Source: Mustelus asterias
Taxonomy: Eukaryota
Length of the DNA: 64,000 bases
Assembly (NCBI RefSeq): GCF_964213995.1
Contig: NC_135818.1
Span: 61,628,001 to 61,692,000, forward strand
Direction of reading: 5' to 3'
The notes under the pieces were generated by a model, which searched no databases, was not told where the DNA came from, and worked only from the letters and a program-made list of their open reading frames with translations. Shown here in pieces: positions 16,755-51,815 of the stretch. The position numbers and the translations under genes were made by a program. Within the stretch, counting starts at the first letter, position 1; each line of letters opens with the position of its first letter.

Positions 16755-17699
16755 GGGGGGGGGGGGGGGGGGGGCGGTCAGCAGAAGGGGCAGTCTTCTC
16801 CCTTCCCAATGCCGAGTCTCTTGATCAGGGGTCTGAGTGCCTTTGAATGAGGGATGCCCAACTCGCCAGTGGAGAGCAGGATGGGGGTATTAAATTCTGC
16901 CCTTTGTGTCTCTATCTGGGCTGTTGAGTGCTCATGATGAGGTGAAAGGTGGGGAATGTTTCTGTGAGTAAGTTTGGAAATGTTATGCCACCTTCCAGTG
17001 AATTTTGGTTTCTTACCTCTGTGAACTTAAAATAATTATTGATTTTATTTTAATTTACAGAAGTTCAGATGGTCTGCTAATCCTACCAGGGCTGTAGGGC
17101 CTTTCCTTTCCCATCTTCTACTGCTGTTAGAATTTCCCCCAAGGACTTTGACACCTTGACATCTAATGGCCTTCTGTCTGACACACTCAGTTATTACGAG
17201 CTATTTGCTCCTGCACAAAGGGGAAACTTCTTTTAAGTTTCTGTAAGATGCTCAGAACCTTTTCTTTTCCTTGTTATTATCTTTCAAAATTTCAAAGGGA
17301 ATATTAAAGGCTGCATGGGAACGTCAACTTGAAAGGTGGTGTTTCACAAGATGTGTATGTATGGATACGCGCGAGGGAAGGTGATTTGGAGAGATCCAGG
17401 TGACAGAGCCACTGCGGCTTTTAATTTTGTGATCACTGTGACGCCCCACAGGATAGTGCCACTGCACGGATGGCATGCAGAGAGCACTTGTCTCTGTGCT
17501 TCTCTGAGATTAATCAGTCTTGACACAAAGCTGCCGTTGCACCTCCCTGTGCTGCCCTTGTCAGTTCATTGAACTGACTGCAACATTGCAGGGGTGTCCT
17601 GCTGGTAGAGATATTCCACTTACTGGCAGTTCCAATTTCTTCCAAAGACCTTGCAGCACTTGCAGGCATCTTAGATCGAATGTCACAAAATTGTGCCTC

Positions 17700-18310
17700 T
17701 GCCTTATTTCATTTAAGGGACATTCCATCTTGGCTTTGCTAAGATTTCCTGCTCTTTCCCTCTCTCCATTGCTGCTACCATTTCCACTTCGTGTCGCTGT
17801 CACCTTTAAGGGCAGGATGTCTTTCATTCACAACTTGCTCTGCCTCCCCCCCCCACCTCCCACAATGTTTCCAGGCCTTTGAAGGCATTTCAGGCGGAGT
17901 TCATGAGTACGACTCGCCCACTATCATTCCAATTAGAGGAGGGTGTGGGGGTGAAGAAGGATGTGGCATTTCCCTGAGGGTGATCCTTCCTTTTAGAGTC
18001 TTTCCTATTCAGCTACAATGTTGCCAGTGTACAACTCCATGGCAGAAGTTGGGCAGTTATAATAGGATTTGTCCCCACACTTCAATCTGTCTCTGATTAT
18101 GTACTCTGGGCACAGCCAATTCCTATTATGGCTAGCCTTACATCTATCTTTGTTCAGGGCATATAGAATCTCATTCATCTGTTCTGCCTCCATGGGTGGA
18201 TCCTTTAATTTGGCTTCCACTCCGTGTTCATGGTGTCCCAAATTCCTTACTTGCAATATTGGTGATGTGCTATTCCCCTGCATGGGGAATGTGCAACATC
18301 ATACTTACGA
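17700..18310 (-). pseudogene. env: ERV env, distal Cys-rich ectodomain remnant
   Basis: MLHIP..SPILQVRNLG...DRCKASHNRNWLCPEYIIRDRLKCGDKSYYNC (ORF 18005-18283), then Trp-rich KWKW*QQW. Confidence 0.65.
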
Positions 18311-18312
18311 AT

Positions 18313-20050
18313 CATCATACCTCCAACAATGGCAAGGTCTGCAAGACATAACAGGCTACAAGGTGAAGGCATGTAAAATCGCCGGCCGCAATGCACCCCA
18401 CCCTGATGAGCTCAATGCATTCCAAGCTCGTTTTGAGCAAGAGGTCAGCAAGAGCATTCCCTCCACCCTGGAAGCCCTGGATGAACCTGTATCAGGGGTC
18501 ACCATTGCAGATGTCAGCTCAGCTTTCTCGAAGGTCAACCCATGGACAGCGACTGGCCCGGACGGGGTACCCGGACGAGCACTCAGATGCTGTGCGGATC
18601 AGCTGGCGGAGGTATTCAGAGACATCTTCAACCACTCTTTATAATCTGAGGTCCCTATCTGCTTCAAGAAGATGACCATCATCCCGGTACCTAAGAAAAA
18701 CCAAGCCGCATGCCTTAATGACTATCGGCTGGTGGCTCTGACATCCATCATTATGAAGTGCTTTGAAAGGCTAGTCATGGCAAGAATCAATTCCAGCCTC
18801 CCAGACTACTTGGATCCACTAAGGTTTGCCTACCGCCACAACAGGTCCACAGCAGACGCCATCTCCCTGGCCTGGCACTCAACCTTGCAACACTCAGATA
18901 ACAAGGACACCTATGTCAGACTCCTATTTATTGACTACAGCTCAGCCTTCAACACCATTATTTCCACGAAACTCATCTCCAAACTCCGTGGCCTGGGCCT
19001 CGGCACCTCCCTCTGCGACTGGATCCTGAACTTCTTAACTCACAGACCACAATAGGTAAGGATAGGCAACAACATTTCCTCCACGATCATCCTCAAAACT
19101 GGTGCCTCACAAGGCTCTGTTCTCAGACCTCTACTATACTCCTTATACACCTATGACTGTGTGGCCAAATTCTTCTCCAATTCGATTTTCAAGTTTGCTG
19201 ACGACACCACCGTAATGGGTCGGACATCAAACAATGATGAGACAGAGTATAGGAATAAGATAGAGAATCTGGTGAACTGGTGCAGCAACAATAATCTCTC
19301 CCTCAGTGTCAACAAAATGAAGGAAATTGTCATCGACTTCAGGAAGCGGAGAGGAGAACATGCCCCTGTCTACATTAATGGGGACGAAGTAGAAAGGGTC
19401 GAGAGCTTCAAGTTTGTAGGTGTCCAGATCACCAACAACCTGTCCTGGTCCTCCCATGCCGACGCTATAGTTAAGAAAGCCCACCATCTACTTTCTCAGA
19501 AGACTAAGGAAATTTGGCATGTCAGCTACGACTCTCACCAACTTTTACAAATGCACCACAGAAAGCATTCTATCTGGTTGTATCATAGCTTGGTATGGCT
19601 CCTGCTCTGCCCAAGACCACAAGGAACTACAAAAGGTCGTGAATGTGGCCCAATCCATCACGCAAACCAGCCTCCCATCCATTGACTCTGTCTACACTTC
19701 ACACTGCCTCGGCAAAGCAACCAGCATAATTAAGGACCCCACGCACCCAGGACATTCTCCCTTCCACCTTCTTCTGTCGGGAAAAAGATACAGAAGTCTG
19801 AGGTCATGTACCAACCGACTCAAGAACAGCTTCGTCCCTGCTGCTGTCAGACTTTTGAATGGACTTACCTTGCATTAAGTTGATCTTTCACTACACCCTA
19901 GCTATGACTGTAACACTACATTTTGCACTCTCTCGTTTCCTTCTCTATGAATGGTAAGCTTTGTCTGTATAGCGGGTAAGAAACAATACTTTTCACTGTA
20001 TGTTAATACATGTGACAATAATAAATCAAATCAATTCAAATCAAATCAAA
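18313..20050 (+). mobile_element. Rex1/Babar-like LINE, 5'-truncated, (TCAAA)n tail
   Basis: ORFs 18672-19055 ([32 protein letters not shown]), 19161-19685 (KFADDTT), 19519-19878; possible 4-bp TSD gaat. Confidence 0.92.
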
Positions 20051-20780
20051 GAATGGGTGCTTAATCTACCTCTGAAGTGACATTCTCGTCGTTAATAGAC
20101 TTTCCAGCTGTAAGAGGCTGGGTTGCACTTCTGGCACCATGAAGCTAGTATACATCGAGCCTATGGGTAACTTCTGAAAGGTCCCCTTGTCTGTCTATGA
20201 GAGCATTAATGATGCCCTAAAAAGGCTGTATTGCCTCTATTCCATGTCTTGAATGTATCTTTCCTCCCTATCTTGGCTCACTCCATATCATCCTCGTGCA
20301 CGTTGTGTGTTATTAAAACTAACTGTTCTCTCATTCGTGTCACCTCCTCCTGCATTCCGGCTATGTCGAGTGAGTTAATGGGGGACATTCCTGCCCCATA
20401 TGCTCCGGTAGCCAGAGACACTATATCCCTTCACTCGTGTCTCCGACCCTCCAATCCGGTCCCCTGCACTATATTTCTGAGGATATGTTCAAACAATGAC
20501 TGCCCTTGACAAAAGCCTGGGAGACTCAGTCTGCCTAAATTGGCTAGGACCTTCACATGTCTATAGCCTGGAACTAGGGTAACCACACCCTCGGTGGGGC
20601 CCATTACCAGTCTGTGCCCAGTGGTTAAATTTGCAATACCCCCTCCGGTTCTGTCATCTTGCTAATATTAATGACATGGTTGTGACAATGTCCAACTGTT
20701 CGCCCCAACGGGTCCCATATGGTTATGTCCCTTAGTCATTGACCAATACCAGGTAAGTAAAATTGTTAATTACCATCTTG
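20051..20780 (-). pseudogene. env: ERV env, N-terminal part with furin site, fusion peptide and heptad repeat
   Basis: Hand translation of 20640 downward: GIANLTTGHRLVMGPTEGVVTLVPGYRHVKVLANLGRLSLPGFCQGQSLFEHILRNIVQGTGLEGRRHE*R/DIVSLATGAYGAGMSPINSLDIAGMQEEVTRMREQLVLI. Confidence 0.75.
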
Positions 20781-20817
20781 TGTGGCAACTGCTTTACATT
20801 CAGTTACATACCAGTTA

Positions 20818-20905
20818 TCTGATGTAGTCCAGATGATCAGTCTGCTGTGGTCCTGTTGGGCGAATTAGCGGATGTGGGACACCCCTTAGTGACAGCAGTA
20901 CCTTG
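20818..20905 (-). pseudogene. pol: Integrase core start remnant
   Basis: PHPLIRPTGPQQTDHLDYI resembles the P-x-GP-W-Q-x-x-H-x-D-Y/F-I motif containing the first catalytic Asp. Confidence 0.6.
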
Positions 20906-21619
20906 TAGGTATAAACAGAACCCTTCTGGCTCTCAATTAGTATTACATTAATTGTATCATTTCTATCTCTTCCTCTTGGGTTCTGTGCCCCATGGCCTGG
21001 GCTACTCTAGTGGCCCATTTACAAATTCCTTTCCCTAGAATATACATCAGCGCAAGTCAAAATATTCCAATTAATTGAATTGCACTCAATATCCCAATTC
21101 CGGTCTCTATCTTCTCAATTGCTTAACTCTATTCAGTTTGCTTCATAACATCTTTACAACAGAAATCAAACCTTTCTATTTGATTCCAGGTAGTAACTTA
21201 TTTTGATTGCCCTTTCTTTGTCTTAAATAGCATCATTATCAAGGTAGATTGCTTACAGCACATTTTATGTCAAAATTATCCCAAATTCAGAAAACAGTGT
21301 TGTGGACTTTCAAATGTCCATCAGTGTCTATCTTATTTCTTCTTTTAAAAAACTTTGTTCCTACGTCCATAGCTATCACCTAACCTGTGTTTTTATTATA
21401 TTTTTCCTCTCTTAGAACCCTTTAAATGTCTTCTTTTTAATCACCAATGTCGTTCTCATTATCCATCAACTGAATCCCACCTTTAATTCTGTCCTACTCT
21501 GTTCAACTATCAGCTCTCTTTTGACATCTCTTTTTATTACCCTGTTCACTCCCTCACATCTCAAGTGTACTTTACATACCTATTCCTTTCCTTCAATGTT
21601 CATCTATCCCACTGGGTTA

Positions 21620-22025
21620 TTTCTTTTGTCCCTAGCGATAATAATCTGTCAGTTTAGTGGTAGGAGCAGGCTTTCCCATTGAGCCCACCTTGCATCTGAT
21701 ACAGTTTTCAACCTCCCCATGTTCAAAATTTGCAGTAGGGTGTGCTCTGAGTTCGGAACCACTTCTCCCAACCTTGTGATCGGTTCACTAACTTTGAACA
21801 CCCACACCACACAGTCAAACTAGAATGCTGTTGGGTCACTATGGCAGTGTAATAATTCCCATCATTGTTAGACAGCCCTAAGGCTGGTGCTGTTGCTAAA
21901 AGTTGTTCAATAGTGGTGAATGGAGCCTTGCACTCCCCCACCCATTCTATCTTTTGTAACTCCTCACTATATGTCCTCCCCCCTTTTACTAGATTCTCAT
22001 TCAGGCTGATAATTTCTGCTATATT
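21620..22025 (-). pseudogene. pol: Retroviral RT thumb/connection (tether) remnant
   Basis: KIEWVGECKAPFTTIEQLLATAPALGL, then after a frameshift SEHTLLQILNMGRLKTVSDARWAQWESLLLP...NNPV. Confidence 0.75.
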
Positions 22026-22600
22026 AAAAATCTATAAATAAATTTGAATGTCTTGAAGCTACTGCAAATCTTCCTTATTCACACTTACCTGAAAAACAAA
22101 AACACAAAGATCCATCCTGCTTGGCACAGAATGGGTTAATTCTCTGCTAGTTTCAAAATGGATGGAGTAAAGTTCTCAAATGGACGTCATTACATCATCA
22201 TTCTTTTAAAAAATCTAGCAAGCATTTAGAATCCAGGATTAACTCCTTTCTGGAATTATCTTTTCATTGCCAATTGTATCAGGAATATATCTTTGAATCT
22301 GACAAGAAGTTTTGATTCAATATCAATCCAAAACAAGATTTGTCATAATCATTTCAAATATCCCACATTTTCCCACTTATTCCACATCTCTCCAGCCTAT
22401 GCTTAAAATTTGCACATTTAATTGTTTCCATAAATCTGCCATTATGAACTAACACAGGCATGAGATTCAGAGCGGTTTAAAATCAAATCAACTGTTTGCT
22501 GAAATAGTTAACTTTTCTACAGACCCCAAGTGGAACTTATGACGCAATATGGAGATAGCTGCAGCTCATAAATTTTAAACAAGTCACCTTCCACTTCCTC

Positions 22601-24582
22601 TTGGTCCTCTTGAAGATCAGAGTGGTCGGCTATGTATGGAACCAAAAGAAATGGGGGAGATATTGAATGGGTTTTTTGCATCCGTATTTACTAAGGAAAC
22701 TGGCATGGAGTCTATGGAAACAAGGCAAACAAGTAGGGAGGTCATAGAACCTATACAGATTAAAGGGGAGGAGGTGCTTGCTGTCTTAAGGCAAATCAGA
22801 GTAGATAAATCCCCAGGACCGGACAGGGTATTCCCTCGGACCTTGAAGGATACTAGTGTTGAAATTGCAGGGGCCTTGGCAGATATATTTAAAATGACGG
22901 TATCCACGGGTGAGGTGCCGGATGATTGGAGGACAGCTCATGTTGTTCCATTGTTTAAAAAAGGCTCAAAAAGTAATGCGGGAAATTATAGGCCGGTAAG
23001 TTTGACGTCAGTAGGAGGTAAATTATTGGAAGGAGTATTAACAGATGGGATCTACAAATATTTGGATAGATAGGGACTTATTCGGGAGAGTCAACATGGC
23101 TTTGTGCGTGGTAGGTCATGTTTAACCAATCTATTAGAGTTTTTCGAGGAGGTTACTAGAAAAGTGGATGAAGGGAAGGCAGTGGATGTTGTCTACATGG
23201 ACTTCAGTAAGGCCTTTGACAAGGTCCCGCATGGGAGGTTAGTCAGGAAGGTTCAGTCGCTAGGTATACATGGAGAGGTAGTAAATTGGATTAGACATTG
23301 GCTCAATGGAAGAACTGATGTGGAGATGCTGGCATTGGACTGGGGTAAACACAGTAAGAAGTTTAACAACACCAGGTTAAAGTCCAACAGGTTTATTTGG
23401 TAGCAAAAGCCACACAAGCTTTCGGAGCTCTAGAGCTCCGAAAGCTTGTGTGGCTTTTGCTACCAAATAAACCTGTTGGACTTTAACCTGGTGTTGTTAA
23501 ACTTCTTTCAATGGAAGAAGCCAGAGAGTGGTAGAGGAGGATTGCTTCTCTGAGTGGAGGCCTGTGACTAGTGGTGTGCCGCAGGGATCAGTGCTGGGTC
23601 CATTGTTGTTTGTCATCTATATAAATGATCTGGATGATAATGTGGTAAATTGGATCAGCAAGTTTGCTGATGATACAAAGATTGGAGGTGTAGTGGACAG
23701 TGAGGAAGGTTTTCAAAGCTTGCAGAGGGATTTGGACCAGCTAGAAAAATGGGCTGAAAAATGGCAGATGGAGTTTAATGCAGGCAAGTGTGAGGTATTG
23801 CACTTTGGAAGGACAAACCAAGGTAGAACGTACAAGGTAAATGGTAGGACACTGAAGAGTGCAGTAGAACAGAGGGATCTGGGAATACAGATACATCATT
23901 CCCTAAAAGTGGCGTCACAGGTAGGTAGGGTCGTAAAGAGTGCTTTTGGTACATTGGCCTTTATAAATCAAAGTGTTGAGTATAGGAGTTGGAATGTTAT
24001 GGTGAGGTTGCATAAGACATTGGTGAGGCCGAGTTTAGAGTATTGTGTTCAGTTTTGGTCACCTAATTACAGGAAGGATATTAATAAGGTTGAAAGAGTG
24101 CAGAGATGGTTTACAAGGATGTTGGCGGGACTTGAGAAACTGAGTTACAGAGGAAGGTTGAATAGGTTAGCACTTTATTCCCTGGAGCATAGAAGAATGA
24201 GGGGAGATTTGATAGAGGTGTATAAAATTATGATGGGTATAGATAGAGTGAATGCAAGCAGGCTTTTCCCACTGAGGCTAGGAGAAAAAAAAACTAGAGG
24301 ACGTGGGTTAAGGGTGAGGGGGGAAAAGTTTAAAGGGAATATTAGGGGGGGCTTCTTCACACAGAGAGTGGTGGGAGTTTGGAATGAGCTGCCAGATGAG
24401 GTGGTGAATGCGGGCTCACTTTTAACATTTAAGAAAAACTTGGACAGGTACATGGATGAGAGGGGTGTGGAGGGATATGGTCCAAGTGCAGGTCAGTGGG
24501 ACTCGGCACAAAAATGGTTCGGCACAGGCCAGAAGGGCCAAAAGGCCTGTTTCTGTGCTGTAATGTTCTGTGGTTCTATGGT
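22601..24582 (+). mobile_element. Young CR1 LINE, 5'-truncated, interrupted by a PLE palindrome
   Basis: ORFs 22636-23073, 23104-23403 and 23528-24634 (GVPQGSVLGP, KFADDTK); octamer tail; near-identical to 56541-57945. Confidence 0.96.
23315..23507. mobile_element. Penelope pseudo-LTR fold-back insertion containing a perfect 152-bp palindrome (23356-23507)
   Basis: 12-bp TSD tcaatggaagaa (23303-23314, 23508-23519); centre gagctc-ta-gagctc. Confidence 0.95.
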
Positions 24583-25534
24583 TCCAGCTTCTCAAAGTGA
24601 CGGAGCTCAAAATCTCTGTCAAATTACAAAATAAAAATAAAATTCATAATCTCCAATGTATATAAATTCTTAATTATCAAATTAGGAACAGAAGATGGTG
24701 AAATCTCTGCCAATTAAAAACACAAGAGTTAAAACAAATATGCCGTTACAATTTCTTCAGACTAAGACAAAGGAAAGAGCACATGGCTTTCTCCAAGCTC
24801 TAAATCCCTCTGAATCACAATTTGAACCCAAGATTATTCAAAGTTGAAATTGGTTATTTTCAAATTCCAATTTATATATTCTGAGTTTAAAATTTCAATT
24901 TACTTTTCACAGATTGTGTTCAAAGTAGCTTCCCACACATCTACATTATCTATGCATGTATACCCTATATTTTCTTGAGAATAACCGTGGCTATCGATTA
25001 TACTCAGGATTAAGGAATTTCAAAGATTTATCTTATTTTCAGTTTACACTTTAATCCAATCCAATTCCCATTTGATTTTAAACTCTATATCAAACCCACT
25101 ATTGTAAAATCTCAATTTGGGGGGAGAACATTAAAGCATTAAAGCAAACAACAGAATAAAAACATCCACACAAGTACTTTATTAAATATACTTAGATGCC
25201 GATGGAAGCTTCCAATCATTCATTCCGCAGTATCTCCTCTCATTTGATCGCAACATTCTAAACTGGAATGAAAATAAAACATTCAAAGAAAATAAGGAAA
25301 ATTGATTAAGACAATAGCCTTCATTCTTCTTTCTTCCAAACTGAAGTAAAACTCCAAAAACAAAAGTAAATTCAAGAACTTTTAAATTTAAATTTTAACA
25401 GATTTAGCACTTTCTTAGCCTCTCTAAAGTTAAACCAAAGTGCAAAGCATGGCATTTACTGCCTGCAATAAATACTCTCTGAAAACAAACAATAGCTTTA
25501 ACAACTCCTGTTCTCAAGCAAGTGTAATGACAAC

Positions 25535-25860
25535 CGGTAGCACAGTGGTTAGCACTGCTGCTTCACAGCTCCAGGGTCCTGGGTTCGATTCCTGGCTCAG
25601 GTCACTGTCTGTGTGGAGTTTGCACATTCTCCTCGTATCTGTGTGGGTTTCCTCCGGGTGCTCCGGTTTCCTCCCACAGTCCAAAGATGTGTGGGTTAGG
25701 TTGATTGGCCAGGTTAAAAATTGCCCCTTAGAGTCCTGTGATGCGTAGGTTAGTGGGATTAGCAGGTAAATATGTGGGGGTAGGGCCTGGGTGGGATTGT
25801 GGTCGGTGCAGACTCGATGGGCCGAATGGCCTCCTTCTGCACTGTAGGGTTTCTATGATT
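25535..25860 (+). mobile_element. HE1-type V-SINE
   Basis: Full-length copy, close to 61448-61778. Confidence 0.9.
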
Positions 25861-26689
25861 TCATTCTAACCATTGTTCAACAAGTAACTAGACCACACAA
25901 ACACACTGAAATACAAAAACTATTCAAATTATCAGCTCAACTTCAGGTTTTCTCAAATCAATTTTTTGTATCTTGTCAATTAACTCACAATATTTCCCTA
26001 GTTTCTCTCTCTCTCAATTCTGTAACACAAACTGTATGCTATCTCCCAGAGTGAAAGCAAAGGGAGCTCCTTTTAGGTTTTTTGCAAGGTTAGTGAGGGT
26101 TTGAGCTCCTGCTCCTTACTACACATGGTCTGTTTTTAATCTGTCCCAGCCACTGGGTTTTTTGCTTGGCTTCAGGAGACTCCGAGTCATACCCTTTTCC
26201 TATCATTTTCTTTATCATTTTCTCTGCTTAGTTCCTATTGCTTGTAATACACTGCCTTCCAGTCCCCCACTTGAAGATTCATTTCCTCTGGACCAGCCGT
26301 CATCATTCGGTTGTACGGCTCTAGTCCCCTAATGCCCTCCCTGCTGCGCAGTGTATTTTTCACTCTGCTAGCTACTTGGGGTGATATTAAAAAATCCTTC
26401 TTTTGCTCCCCCTCTTATTCAGCGCAACTTTAGGCCCCTAACATCTGGTTCTTTCAGGTGGAATATTTTTCACTCTGCTAATCGGGTTGATACAAAAGGT
26501 CTGTCTTTTGTTCCCCAGCATTAAGCGCGATCTCAACAACACTGTGTCTACAGCTGCCTATTTTGTTCGAGTCACTCAGCCTATGGCTCCAGCAACCTGA
26601 CATGTGTTTCCTCTGACTACTGGGTGGTAAACAAAACTATACTCACCCACATAGGAAAACATATCCTGCTGCTGGAATTCCAGTGAATG

Positions 26690-26707
26690 ACCCTGCTCGC
26701 AGCGCCA
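26690..26707 (-). promoter_or_regulatory. Primer-binding site, tRNA-Ser-like
   Basis: Minus strand TGGCGCTGCGAGCAGGGT, 3 nt after ...ACA; complement accctgctcgcagcgCCA resembles vertebrate tRNA-Ser(UGA/CGA) 3' ends. Confidence 0.8.
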
Positions 26708-26710
26708 ATC

Positions 26711-26911
26711 TGTAGGAGCTTTTTTCAGAGGCTAAGTATTAAGCTGGCTATCACTTAGTTTACAGCTCAGCTGACATAAAGATTCACGGAGACGGTATCC
26801 TTTAAAGAAATGTCTTAACCAGAATACTGTCTCTGCGCGTCTTTGTGTTAGCTGAGCCATAAATTAAGTGAAAGCCAGCTTAATACTTAGCCTCTGAAAA
26901 AAGCTCCAACA
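26711..26911 (-). repeat. 201-bp LTR-like terminus forming a fold-back (88-bp arms)
   Basis: TGT...ACA; arms 26711-26798 and 26824-26911 with about 12 mismatches; abuts the PBS on one side and an HE1 3' fragment (26912-26990) on the other. Confidence 0.8.
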
Positions 26912-27289
26912 GGCCTGGGTAAGCTATTCTGTCGGAGAGTCGATGCAGACTTGATGGGATAAATTGTCTCCTTTTGCACTGTAGGGATTCTTTTTTACAT
27001 TAAACAAATCATTATGAGGGCTTGCTGTTAACACTTTGGATCTTTCGGACCGTGGCAGCAAGGCAAAAACAGCAAGGGCCTTGCACTGGGACAGTCCTAT
27101 CAAATCACATGATGAAAGAGGGCATCAACAATCAAAGCAGGAGAACATGCAAGAACAGGTCAGGGCACCTTAAATACATGTAACTGCACGCACCAACTTA
27201 TTAAAATAAAGTTAATTTACGTTTAGCGTACACCACCTTTGTCGTACGTCACAATTCCATTGTGAAAAAAAGAAAACATTCATTGTCTA

Positions 27290-50531: not shown

Positions 50532-50753
50532 ATTGGTTGCCTAATTTAATTCTTTGCAACCCTGGTTTGTTCATTAGTGAAAATCAATATTCTTCATGGA
50601 GCAGAGCTGTCTTTAAAAGGGCAGCTATCACATGTGTCCTGATAATGTGTCACAAAGAACGCCATTGCCTCATAGTGGAGTGATCCATTTACGCTGAGAT
50701 TGAAATCAGCGCCTGATTTAATGACTTGATGGATTTGCTCTTCTTTCTCAAAC

Positions 50754-51815
50754 TTGGGGACTCATGGTGAACAATCACTGAAACAACTCTATGATGACAT
50801 CAACAAGTTCCATCCCACCATCAGGCTCACCATAGACTACTCCCCGGAATCGGTTGCATTCTTGGACACGCGCATCTCCATTAAGGACGGTCACCTCAGC
50901 ACCTCACTGTACCGCAAGCCCACGGATAACCTCACGATGCTCCACTACTCCAGCTTCCACCCTAAACACGTTAAAGAAGCCATTCCCTACGGACAAGCCC
51001 TCCGTATACACAGGATCTGCTCGGATGAGGAGGATCGCAACAGACACCTCCAGACGCTGAAAGATGCCCTCATAAGAACAGGATATGGCGCTAGACTCAT
51101 TGATCAACAGTTCCAACGCGCCACAGCGAAAAACCGCACCGACCTCCTCAGAAGACAAACACGGGACACAGTGGACAGAGTACCCTTCGTCGTCCAGTAC
51201 TTCCCCGGAGCGGAGAAGCTACGGCATCTCCTCCGGAGCCTTCAACATGTCATTGATGAAGACGAACATCTCGCCAAAGCCATCCCCACACCCCCACTTC
51301 TTGCCTTCAAACAACCGCACAACCTCAAACAGACCATTGTCCGCAGCAAACTACCCAGCCTTCAGGAGAACAGTGACCAAGACACCACACAACCCTGCCA
51401 CAGCAACCTCTGCAAGACGTGCCGGATCATCGACACAGATGCCATCATCTCACGTGAGAACACCATCCACCAGGTACACGGTACATACTCTTGCAACTCG
51501 GCCAACGTTGTCTACCTGATACGCTGCAAGAAAGGATGTCCCGAGGCATGGTACATTGGGGAAACTATGCAGACGCTGCGACAACGGATGAATGAACACC
51601 GCTCGACAATCACCAGGCAAGACTGTTCTCTTCCTGTTGGGGAGCACTTCAGCGGTCACGGGCATTCGGCCTCTGATATTCGGGTAAGCGTTCTCCAAGG
51701 CGGCCTTTGCGACACACGACAGCGCAGAGTTGCTGAGCAGAAACTGATAGCCAAGTTCCGCACACACAAGGACGGCCTCAACCGGGATATTGGGTTCATG
51801 TCACAATATTTGTAA
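50754..51815 (+). CDS. Penelope-like element ORF fragment: RT C-terminus/thumb, Cys linker, GIY-YIG endonuclease (uninterrupted 353 aa, 5'-truncated)
   Basis: FHPTIRLT, VAFLDTRI, SLYRKPTD, SSFHPKH, IPYGQALRIHRICS, PCHSNLCKTC, NVVYLIRC, YIGET. Confidence 0.93.
   Translation: MGTHGEQSLKQLYDDINKFHPTIRLTIDYSPESVAFLDTRISIKDGHLSTSLYRKPTDNLTMLHYSSFHPKHVKEAIPYGQALRIHRICSDEEDRNRHLQTLKDALIRTGYGARLIDQQFQRATAKNRTDLLRRQTRDTVDRVPFVVQYFPGAEKLRHLLRSLQHVIDEDEHLAKAIPTPPLLAFKQPHNLKQTIVRSKLPSLQENSDQDTTQPCHSNLCKTCRIIDTDAIISRENTIHQVHGTYSCNSANVVYLIRCKKGCPEAWYIGETMQTLRQRMNEHRSTITRQDCSLPVGEHFSGHGHSASDIRVSVLQGGLCDTRQRRVAEQKLIAKFRTHKDGLNRDIGFMSQYL

Follow-up and report, generated by a model that had tools for sequence, protein, structure and literature searches.

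The 201-bp fold-back at positions 26711–26911 of the window, by which we mean the whole 64-kb stretch of Mustelus asterias DNA that was analysed, is almost certainly an inverted U5 joined to a normal U5 at the 5′ end of one decayed ERV copy. Each of its arms corresponds to the terminal 92–109 bp of an LTR of approximately 730 bp (poly(A) signal to U5 end), and in this copy U3 and most of R have been replaced by an inverted copy of the terminal 109 bp. The best explanation, at roughly even odds (a probability of about 0.5), is that the structure arose during reverse transcription, when a minus-strand DNA that had stopped prematurely would have primed its own copying. Among the copies checked the fold-back is a one-off in this compact form, and it is likely a fossil copying error rather than a new type of LTR.

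Structure of the fold-back and of its provirus

The fold-back begins with TGT and ends with ACA, and 76 of the 88 arm positions are complementary. Counted from the outer end, the mismatches fall at positions 4, 40, 48, 53, 54, 63, 67, 73, 74, 76, 78 and 84, so that arm positions 5–39 are perfect, as an earlier note made from the letters alone had described. When folded as RNA the segment reaches −144.6 kcal/mol (z −18.3), a value that none of 200 shuffled sequences equalled, and folding as DNA gives a z of −16.5. The 25-nt loop that the earlier note placed between the arms is instead a decayed stem around a 4-nt loop (26809–26812); this centre (26805–26816, with a 4-bp stem) is the native poly(A)-signal mini-hairpin of the LTR family. 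AATAAA, ATTAAA and TATAA are absent from both strands, which bears out the statement that the segment has neither AATAAA nor a clear TATA, and it is equally correct that the window holds no second copy of the fold-back.

The two arms differ in what lies beyond them. The host-side arm (26803–26911, plus strand; approximately LTR 621–729) starts inside the AATAAA poly(A) signal and ends at the CA of the U5 attachment site, where it directly abuts host DNA without a spacer or PBS. The PBS-side arm (26711–26802, minus strand; approximately LTR 638–729) is the normal U5 of the 5′ end of the provirus, and continues into spacer, PBS and internal sequence. The arms meet on the mini-hairpin, which overlaps the poly(A) signal and about which the junction is symmetric; the mini-hairpin has a stem of at least 4 bp in 30 of 43 other copies and of 6 bp in 16 of them, approximately ten of the sequence slices used for this count falling short of the site. 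The junction therefore lies at an intramolecular inverted microhomology in R, and the inverted arm ends at the attachment site.

Between the end of U5 and the PBS lies a 3-nt spacer (26708–26710, minus strand), which is also the arrangement at other 5′ LTRs in this family. The PBS itself (26690–26707, minus strand) had been read as complementary to tRNA-Ser, and comparison with tRNA-Ser genes of the same genome (anticodons TGA and CGA) confirmed this: the match to the 3′ 15 nt of the tRNA plus CCA is 18/18 for four of the five genes compared and 17/18 for the fifth. A tRNA-Ser pattern search gave 45 matches genome-wide, among them many dispersed tRNA-Ser genes on unplaced contigs (C85, C102, C103, C130, C141, C155 and C243 of G000), which suggests large tRNA gene clusters. 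Free tRNA-Ser 3′ fragments of 30–51 nt, ending in CCA and without a family LTR, were also seen at three loci (L081, L082 and L083).

The arms differ from each other at 12 of 88 positions (13.6%), within the range found for the five sets of paired family LTRs (78–87% identity); this overlaps the divergence of unrelated family copies (median 17.7%, 5th percentile 10%). Both arms have a 1-nt subfamily marker that 11 of the 43 other copies also possess, and the ends of the arms represent two common family variants. No rare substitution is common to both arms which, with a divergence in the paired-LTR range, dates the fold-back to roughly the time of the insertion. Together with the marker, the divergence is as expected if both arms derive from one provirus near the time of its insertion.

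The provirus lies on the minus strand, the PBS being followed by approximately 4.5 kb of internal sequence that is interrupted by one SINE and two LINE insertions. The leader and first internal region (25876–26689, minus strand) is common to other proviruses of the family, with 70–82% identity, and the internal region continues at 24582–25535 (minus strand) and at 20098–22598 (minus strand), where it is decayed, contains no Pfam domain and lacks the RNase H stretch that is found in the related provirus L060. The last internal piece (18054–18312, minus strand) occupies the position of env; homology to all five relatives stops at 18054 and the 3′ LTR is absent. The later insertions are a SINE (25535–25875, plus strand) and LINE sequence at 22598–24582, which may comprise more than one insertion, and at 18312–20098 (both plus strand, both with RVT_1). 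No recognisable pol was found in the window provirus, no 3′ LTR was found within the window or 40 kb to either side, and, the far end being deleted, this copy has no readable target duplication. On the host side, the flank (26912–26991, plus strand) is the 3′ fragment of an abundant SINE, severed where the provirus inserted and lacking its 5′ part in the window, and the U5/SINE junction is unique genome-wide at up to two mismatches. Relocation of the U3-R and env end to a nearby position was considered and rejected: there is no LTR in the 40 kb on either side and no nearby match to the env end (40 of 59 candidates scored), and an LTR 396 kb away (L110) has unrelated flanks.

Two further features of the window were observed. 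To the left of the deletion point, positions 17297–17646 are old low-copy sequence that is 68–70% like two other loci (on C17 and C22). The open frame at 50730–51815, of 361 aa, resembles GIY-YIG weakly (E 2e-4, marginally below the curated cut-off) and is possibly a Penelope-like element.

The LTR family and the locus in other species

When the genome was searched with the fold-back segment, every scored match apart from the window covered a single arm and stopped at window position 26803 (40 of 270 candidates scored). In 28 other loci the arm runs on into common sequence, defining an element of approximately 730–750 bp that starts with TGTA, ends with ACA and owes some 620 bp of its length to ordinary U3-R. 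Two copies were inspected for motifs, and in these AATAAA lies approximately 110 bp from the end, with TATA- and CCAAT-like motifs further upstream. An exact U5 18-mer has 64 matches in the genome (control, 0). A survey of 93 loci was assembled from 26 loci of the search with the fold-back (after two duplicates were dropped), 52 from the match lists of that search and of the 18-mer search, and 15 long regions, and may include a few segmental duplicates. It contained 92 U5 ends in 86 loci, of which 86 ends continue into U3-R, and just one of the 86 loci besides the window has U5 in both orientations (L027, which is built differently). Amongst 29 end pairings, some of them mutated or mis-paired, the flanks match at four or more of five positions in 18 (11 perfectly), compared with one pairing at 4 bp and none at 6 bp, giving a 5-bp target-site duplication for the family. 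Family LTR, PBS and leader occur together in 13 of the 15 long regions, the 5′ LTR being near-full in 11 and truncated in two, and none of these 13 other 5′ ends carries a fold-back. Paired LTRs occur in L050, L051, L053, L059 and L060.

The structure described in the earlier note as a possible family of symmetric hairpin LTRs is thus not what the family looks like. Solo and paired copies are ordinary LTRs of approximately 730 bp with TG..CA ends, standing as direct repeats around internal sequence where they are paired, whereas the window copy has only two U5 parts; neither solo fold-backs with target duplications nor paired fold-backs around internal sequence occurred among the surveyed loci. 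A genome-wide search for the conserved core in inverted orientation at a distance of 40–240 bp returned the window locus alone; as 23 of 45 arms carry the core, some 25% of fold-backs built in this way would be expected to show up, which excludes a large fold-back family though not a few further cases. A search with the junction pattern gave seven matches against five in the control, none with LTR sequence. A hairpin-LTR family is ruled out by these single-arm copies, the inverted-core search and the survey. The other proposal, that the segment is the U5 of a longer LTR, holds in that the arms are LTR sequence whose U3-R is missing here, and fails in that the hairpin is not a native U5 structure. 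Indeed other copies do extend into a normal U3-R, and they do so from 26803, not past 26911 as the note had envisaged. A MITE was likewise rejected, the palindromic unit being neither repeated nor provided with a target duplication of its own, and being linked to the PBS and internal region.

Recognisable pol domains are scarce. L060 contains an RNase H (E 6e-10) and a weak integrase zinc finger, the sole pol domains among the loci scanned, and no RT domain was found in four other loci or in the frames of the window. The L060 RNase H is nearest to MLV/XMRV among PDB structures (E 4e-14, compared with 0.007 for HIV), a resemblance that may serve as a lead towards placing the family among class I (gamma/epsilon-like) ERVs. 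The element appears to be an ordinary kind of ERV, perhaps of an undescribed family. Two unrelated regions occupy the position of env within this one LTR family, one in L050 and L060 and the other in L051, L053 and the window (18054–20700). The first, which has no Pfam match, we take from its motifs to be gamma-type TM-like; for the second there was no Pfam match and no protein match in one search with the longer proteins. The presence of both suggests that env has been exchanged.

The locus was also compared with contigs from four sequencing runs (organisms A–D). A contig from organism D is collinear with window positions 26573–26902, with 18 differences and 12 gap letters, and departs from the window sequence 9 bp short of the outer end. 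It crosses both arms, so the fold-back must be old, and this contig and the 14% difference between the arms together rule out an assembly artefact. Differences in organism D number 18 of 318 sites (plus the 12 gap letters), compared with 26 of 318 in unique flank (Fisher P 0.27), and there is no clear indication of constraint on the fold-back region. In organism C, a contig at a depth of approximately 4 (X8 record 17) crosses the U5/SINE junction, with its first 59 letters misfitting the left arm; it has 12 differences in 156 positions, compared with 6 in 199 in the unique flank of organism C (P 0.003 at 3%). Because other family copies are identical over the outer 35 bp, short-read contigs can merge there, and the record may represent either an unfolded allele or a contig that is chimeric or comes from a paralogue. 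Contigs of organisms A and B cover the flanks but not the centre of the fold-back, an absence without weight, since repeats of this kind break contigs.

Origin of the fold-back

In the proposed route, minus-strand synthesis from tRNA-Ser would have halted in the A-rich poly(A) signal, approximately 60 nt before the predicted 5′ end of the RNA. The 3′ end of this minus strand would have paired with a 4–6-nt inverted repeat, from which reverse transcriptase would have copied U5, the spacer and 18 nt of the primer. At the second strand transfer, the new PBS end would then have annealed to a full minus strand where plus-strand strong-stop DNA normally does so. The finished DNA, with a U5 end on both sides, would have been inserted into a SINE by integrase. 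The far flank, together with the 3′ LTR and the end of env, would have gone in a later deletion. The loss of U3 would have left a copy without a promoter, unable to found a family. One unusual step and a common deletion are needed.

Self-priming is supported by the symmetry of the junction about the native mini-hairpin and by the asymmetry of the two ends, host DNA following CA on one side and spacer plus PBS on the other, which plain chromosomal copying of a hairpin would not give. It is further supported by the divergence of the arms within the paired-LTR range together with their common subfamily marker, and by two other aberrant products of reverse transcription or integration that became fixed in the genome (L030 and L027). 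HIV-1 strong-stop DNA has been reported to self-prime in vitro, and there a hairpin at the 3′ end of the minus strand likewise primes copying of U5 to give an inverted U5/U5 product (PMC6088434; PMC4668388). The HIV-1 hairpins form at cTAR or at G-runs, whereas the window break is in the poly(A) signal; PMC6088434 calls the self-primed products dead ends and gives them as undetected in endogenous HIV-1 reactions, whereas the window product would have completed second strand transfer and germ-line integration. The route is weakened by a stop point that differs from the predicted cap site, and by the requirement for the deletion as a second, separate event. It is also weakened by X8 record 17, which may be an allele with a normal R upstream (it is ambiguous, and organism D has the fold-back), and by an inverted duplication at L006, which gives a rival chromosomal route a precedent. 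With the far end gone there is no target duplication to read, and integration through two U5 ends is something that we infer. The full account, in which self-primed strong-stop DNA was saved by the second strand transfer, entered a germ line by way of a U5 end on each side and survives as a fossil, is tentative and stands slightly below an even chance.

The two other aberrant products take different forms. At L030 (1453–2049; G000:C23 near 20262750) an LTR is followed by the spacer and by 45 nt complementary to the 3′ half of tRNA-Ser, instead of the usual 18; its target was a SINE, the flanks are duplicated over 28 nt (27/28), and the whole looks like integrated plus-strand strong-stop DNA with read-through into the primer. 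L027 (1501–2360; G000:C23:34505573-34506432) is a head-to-head structure with two outward U5 ends, made of LTR 184–729 inverted and LTR 435–729. Its arms belong to different subfamilies (81% identical, with an 18-nt indel), its joint is a palindromic 8-mer found at both LTR 185 and LTR 441, and its flanks match at four of five positions, as a 5-bp target duplication would (chance 0.016). It is possibly the result of two minus strands primed on each other, or of two DNAs that were co-integrated. At L023 (1470–1491) an LTR is followed by a PBS-like stretch without the family leader, possibly a further strong-stop-type insertion. In six further U5 ends (L052, L061, L148, L160, L163 and L166) the LTR match starts at 603–618, beside a 10-bp palindrome and the poly(A) signal; later insertions account for some of these and deletions for others, and LTR 603–618 is a possible hot spot for breaks.

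A rearrangement after integration is a serious if less probable alternative, in which a normal plus-strand provirus would have been inverted between its two LTRs. The inversion would have begun at the poly(A) mini-hairpin, by fold-back priming or a template switch, and continued with a switch to the other LTR through U5 homology; the short U5/U5 palindrome would have been kept, and the long, unstable U3-R/U3-R palindrome at the other end deleted together with the env end and left flank. This one chain covers the exact attachment-site end and the symmetric junction, and also explains why neither the window nor the 40 kb on each side of it contains U3-R, a 3′ LTR or a target duplication of this copy, at the price of two or three unusual switches; moreover an intramolecular fold-back would have copied into the host flank unless it jumped LTRs within 92 nt. 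Within the family, L006 (740–2417) is a recent duplication-inversion inside a solo LTR, with 146 bp inverted (99% identical) and 352 bp direct (98%), and X8 record 17 may be an unrearranged allele, but an intact allele in organism C would be hard to square with the fold-back in organism D, the more distant of the two, and no derived substitution is common to the arms. In yeast it is established that short inverted repeats can prime fold-backs, the products being stabilised through repeats (PMC10622511). As there, the window palindrome is centred on a short inverted repeat that existed before and the sequence past the break is lost; the yeast inversions duplicate long chromosome arms, whereas the inverted copy in the window is 109 bp and stops at the attachment site (PMC10622511).

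It is improbable that the arms come from two independent, nested or adjacent family members in head-to-head orientation, with the sequence between their inverted LTRs deleted. The overlap of the arm divergence with that of unrelated copies and the two common variants at the arm ends would fit such an origin, and L027 does unite arms of two subfamilies, but two members of a low-copy family (judged by the 64 exact 18-mer matches) would have had to hit one spot and the break to fall exactly symmetrically on the mini-hairpin; the arms also share the subfamily marker, and no remains of a second element lie nearby.

Least credible is a hairpin-LTR family or subfamily, or a hairpin that the host has retained for making dsRNA or small RNA, for which the perfect outer 35 bp and the age implied by organism D could be cited; it is opposed by the inverted-core search, by the lack of folding at the 13 other 5′ ends, by the single, differently built case among 86 loci, by the comparison with flank in organism D and by Rfam, in which the matches are generic hairpins scoring 27–32 bits, far under gathering scores of 48–70. 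The perfect outer run is only mildly unusual, even before allowing for its selection by a reader's eye: P is 0.018 when 12 mismatches are placed uniformly in simulation and 0.05 with family column rates, and runs of at least 35 occur in 19 of 903 pairs of other copies. Its sequence is the state of two of 43 other copies, indicating retention and not a shared change. CpG decay or family conservation was rejected as its cause (column variability 0.18 outside and 0.16 inside). A preferential decay of palindromes at their centre, or selection by eye, is enough to account for the perfect outer stem.

Known elements and meaning of the fold-back

The closest known elements are class I ERVs and their non-autonomous derivatives, which the family resembles in its TG..CA LTRs with CCAAT-, TATA- and AATAAA-like motifs, its tRNA PBS, the purine tract before the 3′ LTR, the occurrence of both solo and paired LTRs, and the closeness of the L060 RNase H to MLV/XMRV among solved structures. 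It differs in its 5-bp target duplication, tRNA-Ser primer and 3-nt spacer, and the window copy differs further in having no recognisable pol, the second, unclassified env-position region and a 5′ LTR that consists of inverted U5 plus U5. Long inverted arms are also a feature of MITEs, of the inverted termini of DIRS elements and of TE-derived microRNA hairpins; unlike these, the fold-back is not repeated as a unit, has no target duplication of its own and is tied to a PBS and internal region. A full-text search of a limited literature found no description of an inverted U5 plus U5 structure. The sequence gives no support for function or constraint in the fold-back, from which the promoter-bearing U3 has gone.

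Under both the reverse-transcription route and the later inversion, the fold-back is not a new LTR architecture with a biology of its own. If the inversion were true, it would be an ordinary rearrangement of a dead repeat. If the reverse-transcription route is true, minus-strand self-priming is not always lethal in a natural genome, a U5 end on both sides is acceptable to integrase, and what is regarded as a dead end in vitro can go on to integration in vivo. Retroviral copying errors could then seed long genomic palindromes, and this shark ERV family would have left several kinds of aberrant product (the window locus, L027 and L030). An inverted U5 plus U5 plus PBS, joined at the poly(A) hairpin, would in that case be a signature that can be counted across ERV families as a measure of the rate of such errors.
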